A stretch of 54,910 nucleotides of DNA from Promethearchaeati archaeon (GTDB taxonomy: Archaea > Asgardarchaeota > Heimdallarchaeia > JABLTI01), in the NCBI GenBank assembly GCA_013166835.1, contig JABLTI010000007.1, positions 1-54,910 on the forward strand, written 5' to 3'. The notes below the pieces were generated by a model. The model made no database searches and was not told the origin of the DNA. It was given only the letters and a program-made list of their open reading frames with translations. Both the position numbers and the translations under genes were made by a program. Within the stretch, counting starts at the first letter, position 1, and the number at the start of each line of letters is the position of its first letter. Shown in pieces: positions 7,212-44,986 of this stretch.

Positions 7212-8279
7212 TCATTTTTTCTTCTTGCTGTCGATTTGTGCTTGAGCAATTTTCTGGAAACCGATAGCATTTGCTAATACAGGATCTTCCGGGACAATTA
7301 CCTCTTCTGGTGATTGTACTACATTGTTTTCGGTTAGAATATTTTTCATTCGTTCACCAAAGACTTCAGCACCGCCACCAGTTAGAATGACTTTTTCAAT
7401 CCAAGCATCGGGTGGGAGGGTACCAAGTAAGGTTGATAATTCATCCACTATGATGTCTGCAATTGAATTGACATAATAAGTGAGGGTTTCAGAAATATCA
7501 TATTGCTCTCCTGCTACCATTACATTCTTTCTTCCAATCTCTATGGATTTTATCAATTCAAATGGTCGCAAAATCTTCCCTGTTTGCTGATTCAAGTTGC
7601 TAGCAATTCTTTCAGCAAGGGTTGTTATTGATTCTTGTACACTTCCACTTGCTGTTCGCATTAGTCTACCTTCATAAACAGTAAGAATATTTGTTGCACC
7701 AGCTCCGATATCCACAACTACTGCATCAACTGCTCTTTGTTCACCAGATGATTTCAGGATTTCATAATAAGATCCATAACAAACTGGCATTACTAAGCAT
7801 TGGTCTATCTTAAGGTTGATTTGTTTTTCTTCCCCTGTTGCATCATTTGCAACATTTATTGTCATAGCTCCTTTCAGACCCTTACTTAAAGTTACCATTT
7901 CATCTTGAGGACTAGCAACTGGCACTCCAGTAGCAACTATAAAATTACCATAGTCCTTTTCTACGAAATTCGAAAGAGCTGCTTTTATTGCTATGATTGC
8001 ATCTTTCAAGCTTTTCATTTTACCTTTATCTGCTAATGGTCGTTTTATTTCGCTTTGTAATCTTGCTAATTCTCCTACGAAATATTTCTTCCCATCATCA
8101 GTTTGTAGCATAAGATTATTTATCCAAGATTTATCAGTCCCTAATCCTTTCCATCCAGGATTTGGATCACCAACTAAACTTGGAATTTTTATAATCTTTT
8201 TACCACCAGGTCCTACTAGTTTTGTTATGCTCGTACCAAGATCTATTCCGATTGCCATTGTATCGCTTTTTTTGGACAA
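7212..8279 (-). CDS. ParM/StbA-like actin-fold ATPase
   Basis: Phosphate-1 IDLGTSITK, VGELA, TGVP, phosphate-2 VDIGAGATN, adenosine ILTGGGA, DP..ANA.G. Confidence 0.85.
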   Translation of the reverse strand: MSKKSDTMAIGIDLGTSITKLVGPGGKKIIKIPSLVGDPNPGWKGLGTDKSWINNLMLQTDDGKKYFVGELARLQSEIKRPLADKGKMKSLKDAIIAIKAALSNFVEKDYGNFIVATGVPVASPQDEMVTLSKGLKGAMTINVANDATGEEKQINLKIDQCLVMPVCYGSYYEILKSSGEQRAVDAVVVDIGAGATNILTVYEGRLMRTASGSVQESITTLAERIASNLNQQTGKILRPFELIKSIEIGRKNVMVAGEQYDISETLTYYVNSIADIIVDELSTLLGTLPPDAWIEKVILTGGGAEVFGERMKNILTENNVVQSPEEVIVPEDPVLANAIGFQKIAQAQIDSKKKK

Positions 8280-11175: not shown

Positions 11176-12192
11176 TTACCTTTGTGCTCTTACTTCTTTG
11201 ATTGGTATTTCTCTAATTATGTCCCTTATTATGGATTGAGAAGATATTCCTTCCAAATCAGCTTCAGGTTTGAGAATAAGTCGATGATATACAGCATCAA
11301 TTGCTATTCTCTTAATATCATCAGGAACGACATAATCACGACCAGAAATAGCAGCATATGCTTTTGATGTGTTTAACATAGAAATACTTGCTCTAGGACT
11401 ACCACCTAATAACAAGCGCGGATCAGTTCGTGTTCTTATTGTAATATCTCGGATAAATTCTATGATGCCTTGATCTACATAGATATTTTCCCTTACAATT
11501 TTCTGTAATCGAATAATTGTTTCTGGAGTAGTAATTTCATTAAGTGTGTTATCCTCTGGTTGATGTTTCAGTTGAATGATTTTTTCCTCTTCAACGGGAT
11601 TTGGTAATCCAACTACAGATTTCAATAAAAACCTGTCAAGTTGTGCTTCAGGTAAAGGATAAGTTCCTTCTTGTTCAATTGGATTCATTGTTGCAATGAC
11701 AATGAACGGTGAGGATAAAGGATAGGTATTTCCTTCTATTGATACTTGCCTTTCAGCCATTGCTTCTAATAGAGCACTTTGTGTTTTTGGTGGCGCTCTA
11801 TTTATTTCATCTGCAAGAAGAATATTTGTAAAAATTGGTCCTCTTCTTAGTTTGAAGGTTCCTGAACGTTGGTCAAACACATTGGTTCCAAGTACATCTG
11901 AAGGTAACAAATCTGGTGTGAATTGTACACGTTTGTACTTGCATCCTAGCGTTGCAGCAAAGAGCTTTGCTAAAGTTGTTTTGGCAATCCCTGGAACACC
12001 TTCAAGAAGTATATGTCCATCACATAGTAAGCTAAGAATCAAGTTATGTACTATATTCTTCATCCCTACAATGTGTCTTGATAATTCATCTTGGATGCTT
12101 TTTGCTATTCTTTCCACATCCGACACATTGACAAGTGAATCACCACGTGATGCTTTCTTGTCTGGCGGAGGTGGTGGAACGAATTCTGACAT
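11176..12192 (-). CDS. moxR: MoxR family AAA+ ATPase
   Basis: GVPGIAKT, QFTPDLLPSD, DEINRAPPKTQSALLEAM, YPLPEAQLDRF, GSPRA. Confidence 0.95.
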   Translation of the reverse strand: MSEFVPPPPPDKKASRGDSLVNVSDVERIAKSIQDELSRHIVGMKNIVHNLILSLLCDGHILLEGVPGIAKTTLAKLFAATLGCKYKRVQFTPDLLPSDVLGTNVFDQRSGTFKLRRGPIFTNILLADEINRAPPKTQSALLEAMAERQVSIEGNTYPLSSPFIVIATMNPIEQEGTYPLPEAQLDRFLLKSVVGLPNPVEEEKIIQLKHQPEDNTLNEITTPETIIRLQKIVRENIYVDQGIIEFIRDITIRTRTDPRLLLGGSPRASISMLNTSKAYAAISGRDYVVPDDIKRIAIDAVYHRLILKPEADLEGISSQSIIRDIIREIPIKEVRAQR

Positions 12193-17043: not shown

Positions 17044-18150
17044 ATGTCAAAAAATAAAGATAAGAGAAAAAAGGAACTCGAAAAAGAGATGGCGAAACTT
17101 CGCAAAAAACTTGAGTTACTTGACGACGATGATGAAGAGGTCAGATTTGATCCTTTCACTGGTGAATCACTAAAACACACAATGCCACCTTTACCTCCAA
17201 AACCCCCATTAATTGCCAAACCAGCTAAACCTGTAAAACCAGTAAGAATAATCAGACAAGACAGACATGGTAAACCCATTGTAGTCCGTCAAGCAGAACT
17301 CACCCCAGAGCAGAAGAAACGCATTGCCAAAGAAAAAGAGCTCATTAGACAAAAGAAGGAAAAACTCAACGAAGAACTTCACAAAATGAGAGATGATTTT
17401 GTTGATAAGCAAAAAGAATTTCAAGAGCAACAACGCGAATATCAACATATCCAAAGAGAGCTCCGTGAAAAAGAACGTGAAATAAGAGAGAAGGAACGAT
17501 CTCTCCGCAATCAACGAAAAGATTACAGTTATACTTGGGATTTGGATATGAATGAAGATATTGAAGGAGTAACTTCAGATTTAGAAGTAAGACTTGGTGA
17601 ATATACTCGATCAATTCTCGCTTCAGTTGCTGATAGTATTAAATCTTCAATGGGAATCGCAATCAAAGGTGCAGGCAATATTGGACAAGAAATGAAAGTT
17701 GTTGGTAAGGAAATGGATAAAATTGGCAAGGAAATCGGCGATAAAATCGCTAAAGAGGTTCATGCCAGTGTAGGTCCAAAAATTCCTGTTGATAAACTTG
17801 AGGAATTCTATGAAGTTGGAGCAACTATTGTCTCTGCAATTGGTGACCCAAATAGATTACGTATTCTCAAAGAACTCGAAAAGAGTCCAAAATACCAAAA
17901 GGAACTTAGCGATATTACTAATCTTCGTGGTGGAACTTTCAAACATCACATGGATCGACTTCTAGAAGATGACGTCAAGTTTGTTACTCAAGAAGTTGTT
18001 CGTGGTCGTTATTTGTTAACGACTCGTGGCCGTGAAGCTTTGAAACTTACCGAAATTCAATTCATGAGATATCTTAGTGAAAAGAATCACAAGAAGAAAG
18101 GTAAGAAATCTGAAGATTCCGACGATGAATACGATGTTAGCATAAAATAA
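17044..18150 (+). CDS. Coiled-coil protein with C-terminal ArsR-like winged HTH
   Basis: D.NRLRILKEL, KHHMDRL, RGRYLLT.RG; GGAG SD. Confidence 0.75.
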   Translation: MSKNKDKRKKELEKEMAKLRKKLELLDDDDEEVRFDPFTGESLKHTMPPLPPKPPLIAKPAKPVKPVRIIRQDRHGKPIVVRQAELTPEQKKRIAKEKELIRQKKEKLNEELHKMRDDFVDKQKEFQEQQREYQHIQRELREKEREIREKERSLRNQRKDYSYTWDLDMNEDIEGVTSDLEVRLGEYTRSILASVADSIKSSMGIAIKGAGNIGQEMKVVGKEMDKIGKEIGDKIAKEVHASVGPKIPVDKLEEFYEVGATIVSAIGDPNRLRILKELEKSPKYQKELSDITNLRGGTFKHHMDRLLEDDVKFVTQEVVRGRYLLTTRGREALKLTEIQFMRYLSEKNHKKKGKKSEDSDDEYDVSIK

Positions 18151-18168
18151 ACTGGAGAGACCTAAAAA

Positions 18169-18891
18169 ATGAAATTAGAGCTAGTTAATGAACCATTAAA
18201 AGTTGTTCAAACAATTGCTATCGCAGATTTAGAAGATACTATTGTAACTGTTGGTAAACGATCTAGAATATTCCCTGTTGTTGAGACCAGATCGTATGAA
18301 ACAATTGGATACTATATCACTGGAGATATTTACCTTGGAGCAGATACAATCGTCAATACACAGAAAGGAGCTATTGGCGAACCGATTGAAAAGCTTGCGA
18401 AAGAGGCTTTCATTAAATGTGATGACATCGATCTTTCTAATACTAAATCTGAAACCCTTTCAGATAAAGATTTTAGGAAAGTAGAATTAACAGCTTATCG
18501 TTATTTCCAGAAAATACACGACTCCCAGTTCAGTAAACATAGCAAATCTGAATGGCGTGTGAATGGTAAACGCTACTCATGGCCTCAAGATCTCAGTCGT
18601 CTTGATTTTTACATCTACTTATTTGAACCAGAAGAATTCATCTTAATAAAAGATGATCATTCAATAATTGCTGTTGGTAAAGACGAACGAGAAGTTATTG
18701 TTTGTAACAAAAAGAAGAATTCATACGTTGTAGTTTCTAAGAAAGATGGTGTGAAAGTTTCTAATGATAAAGGCGAAATTGTTAGAGCAAGTTCTGATGG
18801 AGTTATGATTGACGGTAAAAGCCTGAATGAAATACTTAAAGGTGCACTACGACCGCTATCAGATAGGTTTAATGGTCGAAGAAAATTTTAG
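18169..18891 (+). CDS. Hypothetical protein, probably co-transcribed with the regulator
   Basis: GGAG SD, 18-nt gap. Confidence 0.7.
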   Translation: MKLELVNEPLKVVQTIAIADLEDTIVTVGKRSRIFPVVETRSYETIGYYITGDIYLGADTIVNTQKGAIGEPIEKLAKEAFIKCDDIDLSNTKSETLSDKDFRKVELTAYRYFQKIHDSQFSKHSKSEWRVNGKRYSWPQDLSRLDFYIYLFEPEEFILIKDDHSIIAVGKDEREVIVCNKKKNSYVVVSKKDGVKVSNDKGEIVRASSDGVMIDGKSLNEILKGALRPLSDRFNGRRKF

Positions 18892-18892
18892 A

Positions 18893-18934
18893 AAAAAGGC
18901 TTTTTACAATGCCTTTTTCCTTTTTCTGTTTTTT
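18893..18934 (+). terminator. Hairpin plus oligo-T terminator between convergent genes
   Basis: AAAAAGGC/GCCTTTTT inverted repeat followed by T runs. Confidence 0.55.
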
Positions 18935-18962
18935 GAATAAATTAAAAACTATTTTGTGAAGA

Positions 18963-19652
18963 TCACTTTGATGAAGCTTGAATCTCTTTAGTGCTTTTCT
19001 TGAGTGTTGTGATTTGTTTTTTCATGCTAGTAATGGCTTTCTTATTATTATCAATGGTTTCTTGTAATGATTTAACTTCATTAGTTAGTAAAGTTAGTTT
19101 CTCCTCTAATGCTAGATAATCATCTTTGGCACTAATTGCGGGTTTTGGATAATCACTTTCATGTTCAACAGTTGCACTTCTTTTTGGTAAAGGTTTAGGG
19201 GTTTTCAAAGACTTCCTTCCTATATCTGATGCAGTTGCATCATATTTTGGTTTTTCACTAGGAGTATATTCCATAATTGATTTCTTGCCAGCTCTATGAT
19301 CTGATTTTTCAATCATATCTAAAACGCTAACAGATGTTTCAATATCAGGTTTAACAGTTGTTTCTTTTATGAAAACCTGACCATCTTTAGGAATTTGTTC
19401 TAGGAGATCATTAACAACTCGATCGACAATAACAGGTGAAATATATACTTCTTCAGAATCCATAAGAAAGCGCATGCCTTTTCCTATTTCCTCAGGCAAG
19501 TCTTTGAGTGTGGTTCCCTGTAAAATGCTTGTTTTTTTACTACTGACAGCATGTTTTCCTTGCACAAGGTAAACAGCATAATATTTACCTTCGAGACCAA
19601 ATTTCAATGAAAATGTTGTTCCTGGAATTTTTACTAATGCTTCTTCGCTCAC
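18963..19652 (-). CDS. Hypothetical protein with C-terminal coiled coil
   Basis: 229-aa ORF with heptad repeats at the C-terminus. Confidence 0.7.
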   Translation of the reverse strand: MSEEALVKIPGTTFSLKFGLEGKYYAVYLVQGKHAVSSKKTSILQGTTLKDLPEEIGKGMRFLMDSEEVYISPVIVDRVVNDLLEQIPKDGQVFIKETTVKPDIETSVSVLDMIEKSDHRAGKKSIMEYTPSEKPKYDATASDIGRKSLKTPKPLPKRSATVEHESDYPKPAISAKDDYLALEEKLTLLTNEVKSLQETIDNNKKAITSMKKQITTLKKSTKEIQASSK

Positions 19653-19793
19653 GGCAATTCTTCCTTGTGTTATTGAAATTACTTTGTTTTTACCTCTATA
19701 AATTCGTTATCTTGTAGGACAATTTGAACAAAAGAGCTTTCAGACGGAAAAATAATATGTTAAGAAGATATTTTTGTTAGTGGTGTCTATACA

Positions 19794-20588
19794 ATGAGTA
19801 AAGATGAAATAAAAATTGAACCTGATCTCTTCAAAGTAATACATGACCGAAGATCAATAAGAAAATTCCTTGACAAAGAAGTTTCAGATGAAGTAATAGA
19901 GAAAATTCTTAGCGCAAGCATTAGGGCTCCTTTTGCGTATCAAAGTTGTAGTATAGTGTACACTCGAGATAAAGAGAAAATGAAAAAAATGAGGGTGTTC
20001 CCCTCAGCTAAACTATACATAGTGTTCTTTATTGATTTCAATAGGATGGAAAAAATAGTCAAACAAAGAAACTATACTTATGATTATGATGATAGCATGC
20101 TTTTATGGTTAGGAGTTCAAGACGTTTCACTTGTAGTAGGAAATGTGGTCTTGGCAGCTGATTCTTTGGGTTTAGGTTCTGTTTTGCTTGGTGGAGCACC
20201 ATTTCAAGTTGACAAAATTGCAGAAACTTTCGGGGTTCCTAAAAAAACCTTCCCTGTGGTAAGTATGTGTTTAGGATACCCAGATCCAGAACATAAAATG
20301 CAAATTCGCCCAAGATATCCTTTGAAACTTACTGCTTATGAAGACAAATACAATGATCTCTCAGAGGATGAAATTAAAGAGTGTATGAGAGCAATGGATG
20401 AAGGGTATATTACTCAGGGGTATTATATAAAACTCGGAGCTAAAATACCTTTGAATAAAGGAAAAGACGAAATTGATATGGATAAATATTCATGGTCAGA
20501 GCATATAAGCCGGAAAATAACACAAGGATCATGGTACGATGAAACGTTATTGAGTTTACTAAGAAAACAAGGATTCAAACTCGATTAA
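19794..20588 (+). CDS. Nitroreductase family (NfsA/Frp-like)
   Basis: RRSIRKF, AA.SLGLGS, LGYP, RPR.P. Confidence 0.88.
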   Translation: MSKDEIKIEPDLFKVIHDRRSIRKFLDKEVSDEVIEKILSASIRAPFAYQSCSIVYTRDKEKMKKMRVFPSAKLYIVFFIDFNRMEKIVKQRNYTYDYDDSMLLWLGVQDVSLVVGNVVLAADSLGLGSVLLGGAPFQVDKIAETFGVPKKTFPVVSMCLGYPDPEHKMQIRPRYPLKLTAYEDKYNDLSEDEIKECMRAMDEGYITQGYYIKLGAKIPLNKGKDEIDMDKYSWSEHISRKITQGSWYDETLLSLLRKQGFKLD

Positions 20589-21214
20589 TTTTTCTTTTTC
20601 TTAGTACCATATTTACAGTCTTTAACTAGAAAACAGATAGAACAAAGTGGATTCGCTTTTTTACAGAAGCGTTTTCCGTGCTCCACAAATAAAGCATGAA
20701 ATTCATTGAATAAACTCGCATCGTCATCTAATTTAGATTCATAGAAATTTTTCCAATATTTACTATTATTTGAATCACCATATCCTAACCTATTACTGAT
20801 TCTCATTGTGTAAGCATCAATAACAAATTCCGCTTCATTTAAGAGATAGAGAAGAATTGAATCAGCTGTTTCCTCGCCAATTCCTTTTACAGATAACAGT
20901 GTCTCTCTACTAGGTTTCGGATTACTTATCCATAATCTACAAAGGTTTTTCAAATATTGTCCTTTCAGATTGAAAAATCCTGCTGGCGTTATTAATTCTA
21001 CTAATAATTCATCGTCACATTCTAAGATACTTTTTGGAGACAATAGATTATTATTCCTTAGATTTTCAAGAGCTTTTTCCACATTCTTCCAAGAAGTATT
21101 CTGAGTCAAAATTGCTCCGATAGCGATTTCAAATCCTTCGCCTGGCCACCAGTTTTGTGAACCATAAAACGCAAGCATTTTTTCGAATAAGTCTCTTGGC
21201 TGCATTAGTATCAA
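20585..21214 (-). CDS. Endonuclease III-related HhH-GPD glycosylase with 4Fe-4S motif
   Basis: WWP, GAILTQNTSW, KGIG.ETAD, C-x6-C-x2-C-x5-C. Confidence 0.9.
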   Translation of the reverse strand: MILMQPRDLFEKMLAFYGSQNWWPGEGFEIAIGAILTQNTSWKNVEKALENLRNNNLLSPKSILECDDELLVELITPAGFFNLKGQYLKNLCRLWISNPKPSRETLLSVKGIGEETADSILLYLLNEAEFVIDAYTMRISNRLGYGDSNNSKYWKNFYESKLDDDASLFNEFHALFVEHGKRFCKKANPLCSICFLVKDCKYGTKKKKN

Positions 21215-32889: not shown

Positions 32890-33885
32890 ATGAAGATATT
32901 TTTTGATGAAACCCAAAAAGAACGTGGCAAAATTAATACTAATTATTCCATTCTTCGTGATTCTTTAAGAAGCGAAGGTCTAGAGGTTGAGGTATATAAT
33001 GATTTTCCTATTTCAGAAAAATCATTAAAATGTGATGTTTTTGTTTTCGCTTGTCCTGATGGTTCCAAGCTAGGAAAGAATGAGATTGATGCTCTCTCTG
33101 ATTTTGTAGAAAAAGGTGGAGGGTTATTAATAATTGGAAACGCAGGTGGAGATAGAGGTTTACGTACTAATATGAATGAAATTTTAAATAAATTCGGTAT
33201 TGAGATGCTTTCTGATCAAGTAAAGGATGAAGCTAGTAATGAATTTAATATGCCCACTCATCCAGTGATTAATGATGTAAAGGATCATCCAATAGGCAAT
33301 GGTGTTGCTGAGATAGTAATAGTGGCAGGATGTTCTGTTAGAGGTTCTACTAATATGAAGGGTATTGCCTACACTTCACCATCTGCTGAACCTCCAAATG
33401 CCCCTGTTTTAGTAGCGGGAGATTTCAAACAAGGGAGAGTAGTAGCAATAGGATCATATCGTTTATTCTCTAATTATGGTGCCGGACTTTCTCTAAGAAA
33501 TAATCGCACATTTGCAATGAATATTTTCAGATGGCTTGGACGTCTTGATACAGGGAAAGCCCCTTCAGTTGCAGTTAAAAAGGAAGCCAAAATTGGTGCA
33601 ATAGTTCTTCCAAAGACAGAACCAGTTGCTACAGATATGAAACCATCATCAATTCCACCACCACCACCTCCAACAACAACAGCAGCTCCGAGTTCAACAA
33701 CACAAAGTCAGCCAATTGCCGCTGGTGATCAAAACGTTTTACAAGAGATTGAGCGTTTGCGATCTGAAATTTCTGAAATGAGAGAAATCATTGCACGTCT
33801 TTATTCCGATTCTTTAGGTTATTTACAAGAAATGAAAGAAGAAGTTCGTTCAATGCTTGATTATATTAGAACAAAAGAAGGATAA
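32890..33885 (+). CDS. GIFT-domain (GldG/IFT52-like) protein with polyproline linker and C-terminal coiled coil
   Basis: IFFD..QKE, EIDAL..FV..GG.LL..G..GG....TN.N..L..FGI; PPPPPP. Confidence 0.7.
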   Translation: MKIFFDETQKERGKINTNYSILRDSLRSEGLEVEVYNDFPISEKSLKCDVFVFACPDGSKLGKNEIDALSDFVEKGGGLLIIGNAGGDRGLRTNMNEILNKFGIEMLSDQVKDEASNEFNMPTHPVINDVKDHPIGNGVAEIVIVAGCSVRGSTNMKGIAYTSPSAEPPNAPVLVAGDFKQGRVVAIGSYRLFSNYGAGLSLRNNRTFAMNIFRWLGRLDTGKAPSVAVKKEAKIGAIVLPKTEPVATDMKPSSIPPPPPPTTTAAPSSTTQSQPIAAGDQNVLQEIERLRSEISEMREIIARLYSDSLGYLQEMKEEVRSMLDYIRTKEG

Positions 33886-41923: not shown

Positions 41924-42511
41924 ATGAGTACTGAAGTTGAAATTTTAATCAAGAATTTATTGAGGGGAATAAAGTCCATACTTAAGCGACGAGGATATAA
42001 AGTAATTACCGAAGAACGATTCGAACATTATATTGATTTAATCTGTGAATTGGAAAAAGATACCTCGCAAGAAATGTTTGCTACCATTTCTTTAGAGGAA
42101 AAAGTAGGAGTATCAGTTCTACGAGATTATGTTAAGAGATTCGAACAAAGGAAAGAAGAAAAAGGAGAAGAAAATGTTAAAGGATTACTTGTTGCTTCAA
42201 ATCGTTTTACTCACTATGCAAGAAGAGAAGCAAAAGAAAAGGGTATCTGGATTATTACAAGTAAGGATCCCCGGTTTGATATTTTTACCCATAATCTAGT
42301 TCCAGAACACGTTATTTGTCCTGAAGAGGAATTAAAGGGATTATTAGAGAAATACAATATTAAGAGAAGACATTTACCAAAAATCTTTGCAAGTGATCCA
42401 GCTGTTAAAGCTGTAGGAGCTAAACCTGGGCAAGTAGTAAAGATATTCAGACATAGTGAAGTTGCGGGAGAATCCATAGCTTATCGTTTGGTGGTAAGAA
42501 GAGAAAGTTAG
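41924..42511 (+). CDS. rpoH: RNA polymerase subunit Rpo5/RpoH with N-terminal extension
   Basis: H.LVPEH, LPKI..SDP, G.VVKI.R.S..AG....YR.V. Confidence 0.92.
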
Positions 42512-43146: not shown

Positions 43147-44055
43147 ATGGATAGTCCGCTAGCTTCTGATAAGGAAAGTAGTATTAAATTATCAGATGAA
43201 GCAATTGATGATCTTCTTGATCCAATACCAAATGAACAATTAATTGAAAGAATTGCATTAATTAAGGATTGGAAAAAGAAGCGACCACCGATAGGTGAGA
43301 AACAATCAAAGAGGGAGTACTTCAACGAACATCTTGGTAAAAATGTCACACTTGAAATCATTCGTGATCTTCAAACAGTAAGTGAACATTTCTCTATAGG
43401 GGATTTTGAATGGAGTATATTTACTTGGGATAAGAGTATTACTCGGTATTATCCAGATAAAATTAAGAAGAAGTTTGAAGATGTTATCCTAAAAATTGAT
43501 TCTTTAGTGAATATTGATTTATTAACAGTAGATGAAGAATCTCAAACAATCTTCTTGTTATTAGAACAATGGCAAAAAGAAATTGTTGCAAATACCTTTC
43601 TTTCAAAAATCGAAGCAAAAATTCCAAAATATTTTAGGGTTTATATCTCAGTTTCTAAAAAGATGCTCTTTGTACAAAGTAGAACTGAATTAGCTACAAA
43701 GGAATTCATTCATCTCTTTGAAGAAGCGTTTAATGTAGAAACTAGTGGGATGAAAATTAATGCAATGGTTATTAGAGAATTTGTAAAAAATAATCCTCTT
43801 GAACTAACAAGACTTGTTATCAAAGTTCCTCAAGAAGTAGCAGGATTTGGAGGGCTAACCGAATTAACCCTTGTTGGGAGTGATGTAATAAAAGGAGCAA
43901 AAGGTCTAATGGATAGACATGAGACATCAACAATAAATGTTGGACCTTGGGTAGGAGCTTCAAATTTTGAAATTGATTTAACAGTTGGGAAAGCAATAAA
44001 GACTAAATCAATTAAGAAAGTTCTTGAGCTTTTTGAACTCATGAAAAACCTTTGA
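43147..44055 (+). CDS. Hypothetical protein
   Basis: 302-aa ORF with GAGG SD. Confidence 0.75.
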   Translation: MDSPLASDKESSIKLSDEAIDDLLDPIPNEQLIERIALIKDWKKKRPPIGEKQSKREYFNEHLGKNVTLEIIRDLQTVSEHFSIGDFEWSIFTWDKSITRYYPDKIKKKFEDVILKIDSLVNIDLLTVDEESQTIFLLLEQWQKEIVANTFLSKIEAKIPKYFRVYISVSKKMLFVQSRTELATKEFIHLFEEAFNVETSGMKINAMVIREFVKNNPLELTRLVIKVPQEVAGFGGLTELTLVGSDVIKGAKGLMDRHETSTINVGPWVGASNFEIDLTVGKAIKTKSIKKVLELFELMKNL

Positions 44056-44233: not shown

Positions 44234-44986
44234 TTGAGCGATAACTTAGATAATCTTTTGGGCGACATTTATTCTTCAAGCAGTCAAAGTCAGGGTGTTA
44301 AAGAATTAGCGAATTTAATTAATAATCTTTCATCACTCCTTCTAAAAGCAATCAGTCAATTAGAAACCCGAGTTTCGAAATTAGAACAACAAGTAGGTCG
44401 TGGTAGCACACCTAGACCACCTCAACCAAGCAGTCCAGTACCTCCTCCAACTACTAGAGCACCAATGCCAAAAACGGCATCTCCGTTTAGTACTCCTTCT
44501 ACTCCACCTCCCCCACCTCCAAAACCTGCTCCAGTAGCAGCAGCAACTGCAGGTGGTGGTCCAGCTAGTGCAGCTGAAGCGGCCTCAATGTTAGGTGTAA
44601 CTTTGAAGAAAGCACCAACAAAAACAACTCCAGCAGCTGCTACAGATTCAGGACCTTCATTCCTTACAGGTGTCGTTAATCCTGATGCTCCAGCCGCAAC
44701 AAGTCCCAGTGGTGCTACTCAGCCAGATGCTGTAGCGCCTACAAGTATGGGAGCTAGTGGTGGTGTAGCCGGTCCTGGTGGCGGATTTAGAGGAGAATTA
44801 GCTGAAAAATTGGCAAATAGACGTCAAAAAGTAGCACAACAAATAGAAGATGATTTTGATGCTCCTGATCTTGCGACTGAACCTGGTGAAGAAGAAGAGG
44901 AAGTTGTAGAGGAATCTACAAGTAGTGAATTAAAATTGGATCTTGAAGATGAACTCCGTAGTGCATTTTCAAAACTAAAAGGTTAA
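44234..44986 (+). CDS. Proline-rich protein with WH2-like and VASP/WASP-like motifs
   Basis: N-terminal coil, PPPPP tract, MLGVTLKK, GGGFRGELAEKLANRR, acidic stretch, C-terminal helix; TTG start with GGTG SD. Confidence 0.7.
   Translation: MSDNLDNLLGDIYSSSSQSQGVKELANLINNLSSLLLKAISQLETRVSKLEQQVGRGSTPRPPQPSSPVPPPTTRAPMPKTASPFSTPSTPPPPPPKPAPVAAATAGGGPASAAEAASMLGVTLKKAPTKTTPAAATDSGPSFLTGVVNPDAPAATSPSGATQPDAVAPTSMGASGGVAGPGGGFRGELAEKLANRRQKVAQQIEDDFDAPDLATEPGEEEEEVVEESTSSELKLDLEDELRSAFSKLKG

Follow-up and report, generated by a model that had tools for sequence, protein, structure and literature searches.

Asgard archaea crawl by means of actin-filled protrusions, and the only regulators of their actin described in the sections of PMC13716822 used here are gelsolins and profilins. 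Filament nucleation machineries are stated to be undiscovered in these organisms in the excerpt of PMC9433394 (this and all other papers are cited from excerpts). Could an uncharacterized open reading frame (ORF) of a Promethearchaeati archaeon encode such an activity? The question is raised by a gene of the window, by which we mean the whole analyzed stretch of 54,910 nucleotides of contig JABLTI010000007.1. An initial annotation, made from the letters alone, had interpreted its product as an Ena/VASP- or WASP/WAVE-like actin regulator. This interpretation held in part: the motifs, their conservation, and the preference for a VASP-like role were borne out, while membership in the Ena/VASP or WASP/WAVE families was not. 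We propose that the 250-aa protein is a candidate, albeit unproven, archaeal actin nucleator, without being a genuine VASP or WASP. It belongs to a so far undescribed family, the layout of which seems to resemble the one found in eukaryotic actin-assembly factors.

Gene, locus, and conserved blocks

Most of the protein is disordered, and four helical blocks are predicted. AlphaFold2 placed helices at aa 2-13, 18-55, 113-119 (low confidence), 185-209, and 230-249 and left the remainder disordered (pTM 0.22); aa 21-50 of the coil reached pLDDT values of 88-95. All elements listed in the initial annotation are present in the order given there at 44234-44986 (Table 1), and two more conserved blocks, aa 76-85 and 140-149, are absent from it.

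Table 1. Features of the gene and its product, with positions in the window
Feature	Position	Strand	Remarks
Entire gene (250 aa); long form within an undescribed family of Asgard archaea	44234..44986	+	TTG start
N-terminal helix and coiled coil, aa 1-55, probable oligomerisation module	44234..44398	+	conservation 0.91 (aa 1-52)
Pro-rich region, aa 61-101, candidate profilin-binding region	44414..44536	+	PxPKxASPF block at aa 76-85, poly-Pro run
Short helix+LKK unit, aa 112-128	44567..44617	+	WH2/GAB-like by eye; motif itself at aa 112-127 (44567-44614); conservation 0.89
GPSFLT block, aa 140-149, within disordered linker	44651..44680	+	conservation 0.83
Amphipathic helix with basic end, aa 182-208	44777..44857	+	FAB/C-region-like; GGF...RRQK at aa 182-199 (44777-44830); conserved DDF at end
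Acidic tract, aa 205-227	44846..44914	+	variable, without Trp; conservation 0.54 (aa 209-228)
Terminal amphipathic helix, aa 230-250	44921..44983	+	highest conservation of all blocks, 0.93 (aa 229-250)

A protein search over 4666 candidates recovered 42 homologues (E<=0.001), a number that includes the query itself; they are annotated as hypothetical proteins and stem mostly from Heimdallarchaeota or Asgard group archaea. Thirty-three of the 42 were aligned, with 9 fragments or near duplicates omitted, and conservation was computed as mean top-residue frequency on 32 orthologues after removal of P0041 for its aberrant C-terminus. Across these close orthologues, the coil, the helix+LKK unit, the FAB/C-like helix, and the terminal helix are 89-93% conserved, whereas the linkers range from 0.45 to 0.64. 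The PxPKxASPF block scores 0.88, and the poly-Pro run, six Pro in the window protein, is represented by at least five consecutive Pro in 26/32 orthologues. Both motifs highlighted in the initial annotation are conserved. In the helix+LKK unit, L124 is invariant (32/32), followed by K125 (30/32) and K126 (24/32). The basic amphipathic helix (0.91 over aa 177-200) retains its ELAEKL core and R196 in 32/32 and R197 in 30/32 sequences, and position 208 is F in 30/32 and Y in 2/32. Such conserved motif islands within a variable, disordered chain lend plausible support to a role in actin assembly.

The gene is under purifying selection: pN was lower than pS over the whole gene in 6/6 orthologue pairs, and pN values of 0.035-0.090 compare with pS values of 0.29-0.92 in the helix+LKK block. 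It is single-copy in 10 of the 11 genomes of its lineage (f1), with conserved neighbours, and its position between a 302-aa gene without assigned function and a ThiI-like gene is kept in the ten complete f1 loci read. The 302-aa neighbour upstream (43147-44055, +) is itself conserved, has no Pfam or NCBIfam match, and adjoins the gene in all ten. No actin gene was found among the neighbours in the loci read, which are housekeeping genes, a point against a role in actin assembly. Elsewhere in the window, 41924-42511 (+) encodes an Rpo5 that carries a restriction-endonuclease-like domain at its N-terminus and so has the fused, eukaryote-like form of Rpb5. Three of four RNA libraries yielded contigs over the 5' part of the 250-aa gene, but transcription is not thereby proven; RNA run X3 has only one 39-base piece within the gene, and uncovered stretches carry no meaning.

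These observations bear on the most trivial explanation, namely a low-complexity ORF in which the motif likeness arose by chance and which has no conserved function. Likeness to short motifs is readily overestimated in sequence rich in Pro, Ala, and Gly, and the pTM of 0.22 is low, but block conservation, purifying selection, the single copy with conserved neighbours, and an abundant homologue in a published proteome (see below) argue against this explanation and, as to whether the gene is real, refute it; we regard it as extremely improbable. Scans of the protein against Pfam and NCBIfam returned only KAR9 (E 5.8) and GltJ (far under the cut-off), both compositional. In a set of 6901 six-frame ORFs from the same genome, the GxxL-basic-basic pattern occurred in 21, the C-like pattern in 2, and at least five consecutive Pro in 5; one ORF, 44234-44986, combined all three, a purely descriptive count since the patterns were drafted post hoc. 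Three of the five poly-Pro ORFs of the genome fall inside the window; the two besides this gene, at 32890-33882 (+) and 11179-12192 (-), also carry six-Pro runs.

Distribution of the family and the helix+LKK unit

A 20-sequence profile detected the family in 145/400 Asgard genomes, with 10/11 genomes in f1, 1/1 in f2, 27/31 in f3, 3/3 in f4, 11/12 in f5, 0/22 in f6, and 0/2 in f7. Narrower queries recovered fewer: profile A2 matched 16/400 genomes of the phylum, and an f3 orthologue matched 41/83 genomes of the class. Absence of the family from f6 and f7 was rejected, as the five loci inspected in these lineages hold short poly-Pro forms. Long forms are arranged as coil, Pro/Gly-rich linker, one or more helix+LKK units, basic helix, acidic tract, and terminal helix, while short forms of 130-160 aa consist of a coil, a Pro-rich stretch, and one basic helix. 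Inspection of 20 weaker matches gave 14 short forms, 2 Arf-like GTPase fusions, 3 helix-less short paralogues, and 1 doubtful case; the loci L115 and L018 were judged doubtful family members.

When a profile was built from short forms alone, the window protein came out on top in its own proteome (E 1.4e-6, against 5.6e-4 for the next match). Profile-profile comparison of long and short forms gave 96.8% and an E value of 2e-10, and since this match spans only 54 columns, all within the coil, the link between the two forms rests on coil and layout. The profile of the short-form helix has weak matches to the internal helix in 21/44 long forms and to the terminal helix in 19/44, so that the terminal helix is possibly a duplicate of the internal one. 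Against 1.84 billion representative sequences, profile A2 produced ten matches, nine of which are family members or fragments, a result that cannot gauge the range outside Asgard archaea because the profile is narrow; the tenth, a repeat protein, was judged spurious. The ESM Atlas contributed three Asgard clusters at 0.84-0.86, which serve as leads only, and no usable named match when searched with a three-repeat orthologue. NCBIfam assigned to one short form a compositional BimA-type brush (E 0.031, far under the cut-off). No description of the family was found in the literature searched, which was largely open-access and, for the supplement of PMC13716822, comprised a term search that excluded files 11 and 14.

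The number of helix+LKK units differs between lineages. Among 44 long forms, one unit is present in f1 (10/10), f2 (1/1), and f4 (3/3), two (23/25) or three (2/25) in f3, and three (4/5) or four (1/5) in f5, as counted with a profile built from these same units. The unit set A6 leaves out 22 of 61 regular-expression matches, which were Pro-Asn-Leu linker repeats and other non-helical matches. Tandem repetition of the helix+LKK unit in sister lineages is the behaviour expected of a modular ligand-binding motif.

The GAB motif, as defined in the excerpt of PMC3034019, is a helix followed by LxxV/T, with x being basic. The strict LxxV/T motif occurs in 0/10 f1, 5/25 f3, and 3/5 f5 proteins; f3 and f5 have five hits each, compared to 0.41 and 0.09 expected from shuffled sequences, although related sequences are not independent. 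In 30/32 orthologues the residue after LKK is Ala, giving LKKA instead of LxxV/T. Compared by eye, the window's unit does share with the human GAB peptide shown in PMC3034019 the placing of two residues ahead of the Leu: a Gly at a distance of three positions and a hydrophobic residue at a distance of five.

Profile searches for WH2 and VASP families gave no match. Neither this locus nor any of the 39 units scored above the curated cut-off of Pfam WH2 (PF02205), and VASP_tetra had no match in the protein at E<=10. WH1 (EVH1) was found neither in the protein, the first 55 residues of which are helical instead, nor in the genome, in a scan whose control was likewise silent. The motif profiles retrieved no WH2, VASP, or WASP chain from the PDB at E<=10, in a search without positive control for profiles this short, and a profile of 32 basic helices retrieved no VASP chain, with Pfam also lacking a VASP/WASP match. 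Profile A2 had one PDB match, which was judged to be chance. A profile of the units of other lineages failed to recover the window's unit within its own proteome; the corresponding profile for the C-like helix placed that helix fifth (E 11), and this helix is absent in 5/5 f5 proteins scored. The attribution to the Ena/VASP or WASP/WAVE families thus could not be maintained, given these negative searches, the missing EVH1 domain, the N-terminal position of the coil, and the LKKA ending. The comparison of the basic helix with FAB relies on the motif given in the initial annotation.

Two further loci concern the relation between the helices. In an f7 short form (L174:1480-1929(-)), LKKV forms the end of the terminal helix itself; in an f3 protein (L052:1507-1836(-)), an EL-type helix continues into an LxKV unit. 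Both hint at a common origin of the two helix types.

Coil, partner genes, and possible functions

The N-terminal coil is likely trimeric, judging from its closest structural matches. A 38-sequence coil profile matched 594 PDB sequences, and the best 60 of these 594 were nearly all coils of haemagglutinin HA2, reovirus sigma-1, spike HR1, autotransporters, and VP35, which are mostly trimers; chains of WRC or WASH were absent from these 60. In two f3 orthologues (2/13 proteins), Pfam CCDC53 ranked first, in one of them exceeding the cut-off with 25.5 bits against 24.6; across the 400 Asgard genomes, too, a family member matches CCDC53 best. In that scan, 15/400 genomes gave a match at E<=0.01, none above the cut-off, and eight of the ten inspected were unrelated. 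Of the 50 families matched by 38 coil domains, CCDC53 lay outside the 25 most frequent, with baculovirus and haemagglutinin coils ranking higher; HSBP1 matched 3/38. Homology of the coil to CCDC53 was not upheld, because genome scan, family ranking, and PDB search mark the match as unspecific.

These matches are central to a reading of the family as an ancestral WASH/WAVE-type factor, in which the coil would be homologous to CCDC53, HSBP1, and BRK1 and the V-C-A-like tail would activate an Asgard Arp-like paralogue. BRK1 and HSBP1 form trimers of such helices, and the WASH/WAVE order of coil, Pro, WH2-like, C-like, and acidic segments equals that of the long forms. Together with the CCDC53 and HSBP1 matches, a conserved Phe following the acidic residues and the one Arp-like paralogue of the genome point in this direction. 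Apart from the unspecific CCDC53 match and the lack of WRC or WASH chains among the best PDB matches, we found no Trp in the C-terminal half of any of 44 long forms, which agrees with the absence of the WASP acidic-motif Trp pointed out in the initial annotation. ARPC4 and p34 were not found in the genome, which is 84.75% complete and in which the controls were likewise silent. We consider a WASH/WAVE ancestor very unlikely, and the initial annotation's choice of a VASP-like role, rather than one in activating Arp2/3, is in line with the missing Trp and with the failure to find Arp2/3 subunits in the genome.

The genome contains a canonical actin, the Arp-like paralogue, three further actin-fold genes, one two-domain gelsolin, and a profilin-like gene that Pfam missed and an Asgard profilin query detected (E 2e-12). 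Absence of profilin from the window's lineage was therefore rejected; Pfam had simply failed to detect the gene. Among the 83 genomes of the class, 72 have actin and 75, the own genome included, a profilin-like gene, and this co-occurrence discriminates little because both are near-universal in Asgard archaea. Heimdall and Thor profilins bind poly-Pro weakly according to the excerpt of PMC8410842. Three observations were made alongside: the window carries a divergent actin-fold gene of 355 aa (7215-8279, -), one of the genome's three similar paralogues; the profilin-like gene (C208:17645-18004(+)) faces a 1021-aa protein with two poly-Pro runs (18085-21147(-)); and at L018:1-1989 an Arp-like gene is followed by three coiled-coil ORFs, one of which begins with a poly-Pro run.

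A member of the family is represented in published proteome data. Locus L157 of Ca. Lokiarchaeum ossiferum encodes a 152-aa short form between NEF87_002200 and NEF87_002202, and from these flanking genes its product is taken as NEF87_002201 / GNAMCCOK_02219, with a computed mass of 16.14 kDa and a tabulated one of 16.13 kDa. This protein has abundance rank 462 among 3,061 expressed proteins (PMC13716822 and its supplement). In the Lokiactin co-immunoprecipitation (co-IP) of the same study it was detected with 4 peptides and 9 spectra, flagged not valid and without p-value, and quantified in 2/3 actin versus 0/3 IgG samples, a pattern common to 12/44 rows on the one page, of about 50, that was consulted. 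For the similarly abundant gelsolin GelX (rank 418), 65 spectra and a log2 ratio of 2.28 are given. With regard to stable actin binding by the short form, which has no helix+LKK unit, the co-IP ranges from neutral to slightly unfavourable. Among the proteins enriched with Lokiactin is an Arf (PMC13716822); the idea that it carries the family module was rejected, as UYP48373.1 is without it.

We suggest that the family comprises oligomeric, Arp2/3-independent actin nucleators or elongators working like Ena/VASP or BimA and belonging to neither family, a reading to which we assign about even chances. According to this model, the N-terminal coil would join chains, probably three, and the Pro-rich arm would recruit profilin-actin. 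The helix+LKK unit, by its likeness to known motifs, could hold an actin monomer in the barbed-end cleft, and the basic amphipathic helix, perhaps with the terminal helix, may tether the protein to the end or side of a filament. Three arms would thereby gather several monomers, leading to filament nucleation or extension, and lineages could tune this activity through the number of helix+LKK units, from none in the short form to four. In the excerpt of PMC9569871, a Pro-rich region, WH2 motifs, and a trimeric coil suffice for nucleation and processive elongation by BimA.

A possible but less probable reading is that of a general oligomeric scaffold, the docking helices of which would bind non-actin partners, as in a small-GTPase effector or an ESCRT/trafficking adaptor. 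In all three Lokiarchaeia-type fusion loci inspected (L019, L113, and L114), the coil+helix module lies C-terminal to an Arf-like GTPase. In 4 of the 10 loci checked for it, a short paralogue without the motifs directly follows a gene for a Ras-family GTPase, and it lies near a UBC/Vps23-core gene in L196 and Snf7 genes in L099. The negative actin-motif profile tests and the lack of co-IP enrichment of the short form fit a scaffold as well, and in a variant of this reading the terminal helix may be a MIM1-type helix that binds MIT domains. However, a scaffold leaves the tandem helix+LKK[VA] repeats and the poly-Pro runs unexplained, GTPase links would suit an actin regulator equally well, one short paralogue (L194) adjoins a profilin-like gene, and no ESCRT gene adjoins the long form in the loci read.

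For reference, the Arf-like fusions of about 410-480 aa are located at L019:1384-2814(-), L113:1106-2332(+), and L114:2151-3377(-), and ORFs of this size are common among the f20 and f21 matches of the 20-sequence profile. They join a GTPase to a candidate actin-binding helix. The short paralogue (120-160 aa; f2, f4, and f5) has a basic N-terminus, a coil, and a Pro-rich tail ending in PKL or PKF, and was seen at L183, L185, L188, L196, L099, L194, L097, and L098.

Comparison with known actin-assembly factors

A phylum-wide, abundant, and probably soluble protein with such a layout is a concrete candidate for actin assembly in Asgard archaea. If the actin-assembly reading is true, the logic of profilin, polyproline, and WH2 would be older than eukaryotes, and the series from no unit to four would trace its growth in the lineages closest to them. 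A more far-reaching version, which we put forward as an unlikely speculation, is that the family is the missing Asgard actin nucleator or polymerase: a minimal phylum-wide form of coil, polyPro, and helix would have been expanded in Heimdall-group lineages through inserted and tandemly repeated WH2-like units and through an acidic tail. CCDC53/BRK1-type trimers would derive from its homotrimeric coil, and the family would be a prokaryotic forerunner of the WASH/WAVE and VASP-type regulators, with the coupling to small GTPases already in place.

Compared with WASH/WAVE proteins, the likeness concerns the layout of coil, Pro, V-like, C-like, and acidic segments, along with the borderline CCDC53 match in two relatives; the family differs in that its acidic tract is without Trp, that small subunits of Arp2/3 were not found alongside, and that the coil match is unspecific. 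In sister lineages, flexible linkers connect two to four helix+LKK units, an arrangement resembling that of Spire, Cobl, and Vibrio VopL, as these are presented in PMC9569871. Unlike such tandem-WH2 nucleators, the window protein has a single unit and no Pfam WH2 match, and in the Asgard repeats helix and Leu lie closer together than they do in the WH2 peptides shown in PMC3034019. WH2-like motifs in Asgard archaea have been reported only inside gelsolins in the literature searched, as far as the excerpts extend. The two-domain gelsolins carry an LKKT-type motif of this kind (PMC9433394), which shows that the motif type works in Asgard archaea; there it follows a folded gelsolin domain, whereas the window protein has none.

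In the eukaryotic Ena/VASP proteins, EVH1 is followed by a Pro-rich region and by EVH2 with GAB, FAB, and a tetramerizing coil (PMC3034019, in the part consulted). The window protein similarly has a Pro-rich region, then a helix+L-basic-basic unit, then a basic amphipathic helix, together with an oligomerising coil. In contrast to Ena/VASP, it is without EVH1, its coil is N-terminal and probably trimeric with no C-terminal tetramerisation coil, its unit ends in Ala and not Val/Thr, an acidic tract and a terminal helix are added, and there is no profile match.

Burkholderia BimA, an Ena/VASP mimic described in the excerpt of PMC9569871, is likewise prokaryotic and Pro-rich, and it combines a coil that is probably trimeric with a single putative WH2 unit or several of them. 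The Asgard protein differs from it in lacking an autotransporter anchor, in carrying the coil at the opposite end, and in presumably acting on the cell's own actin. Overall, BimA is the best functional precedent for the Asgard family.
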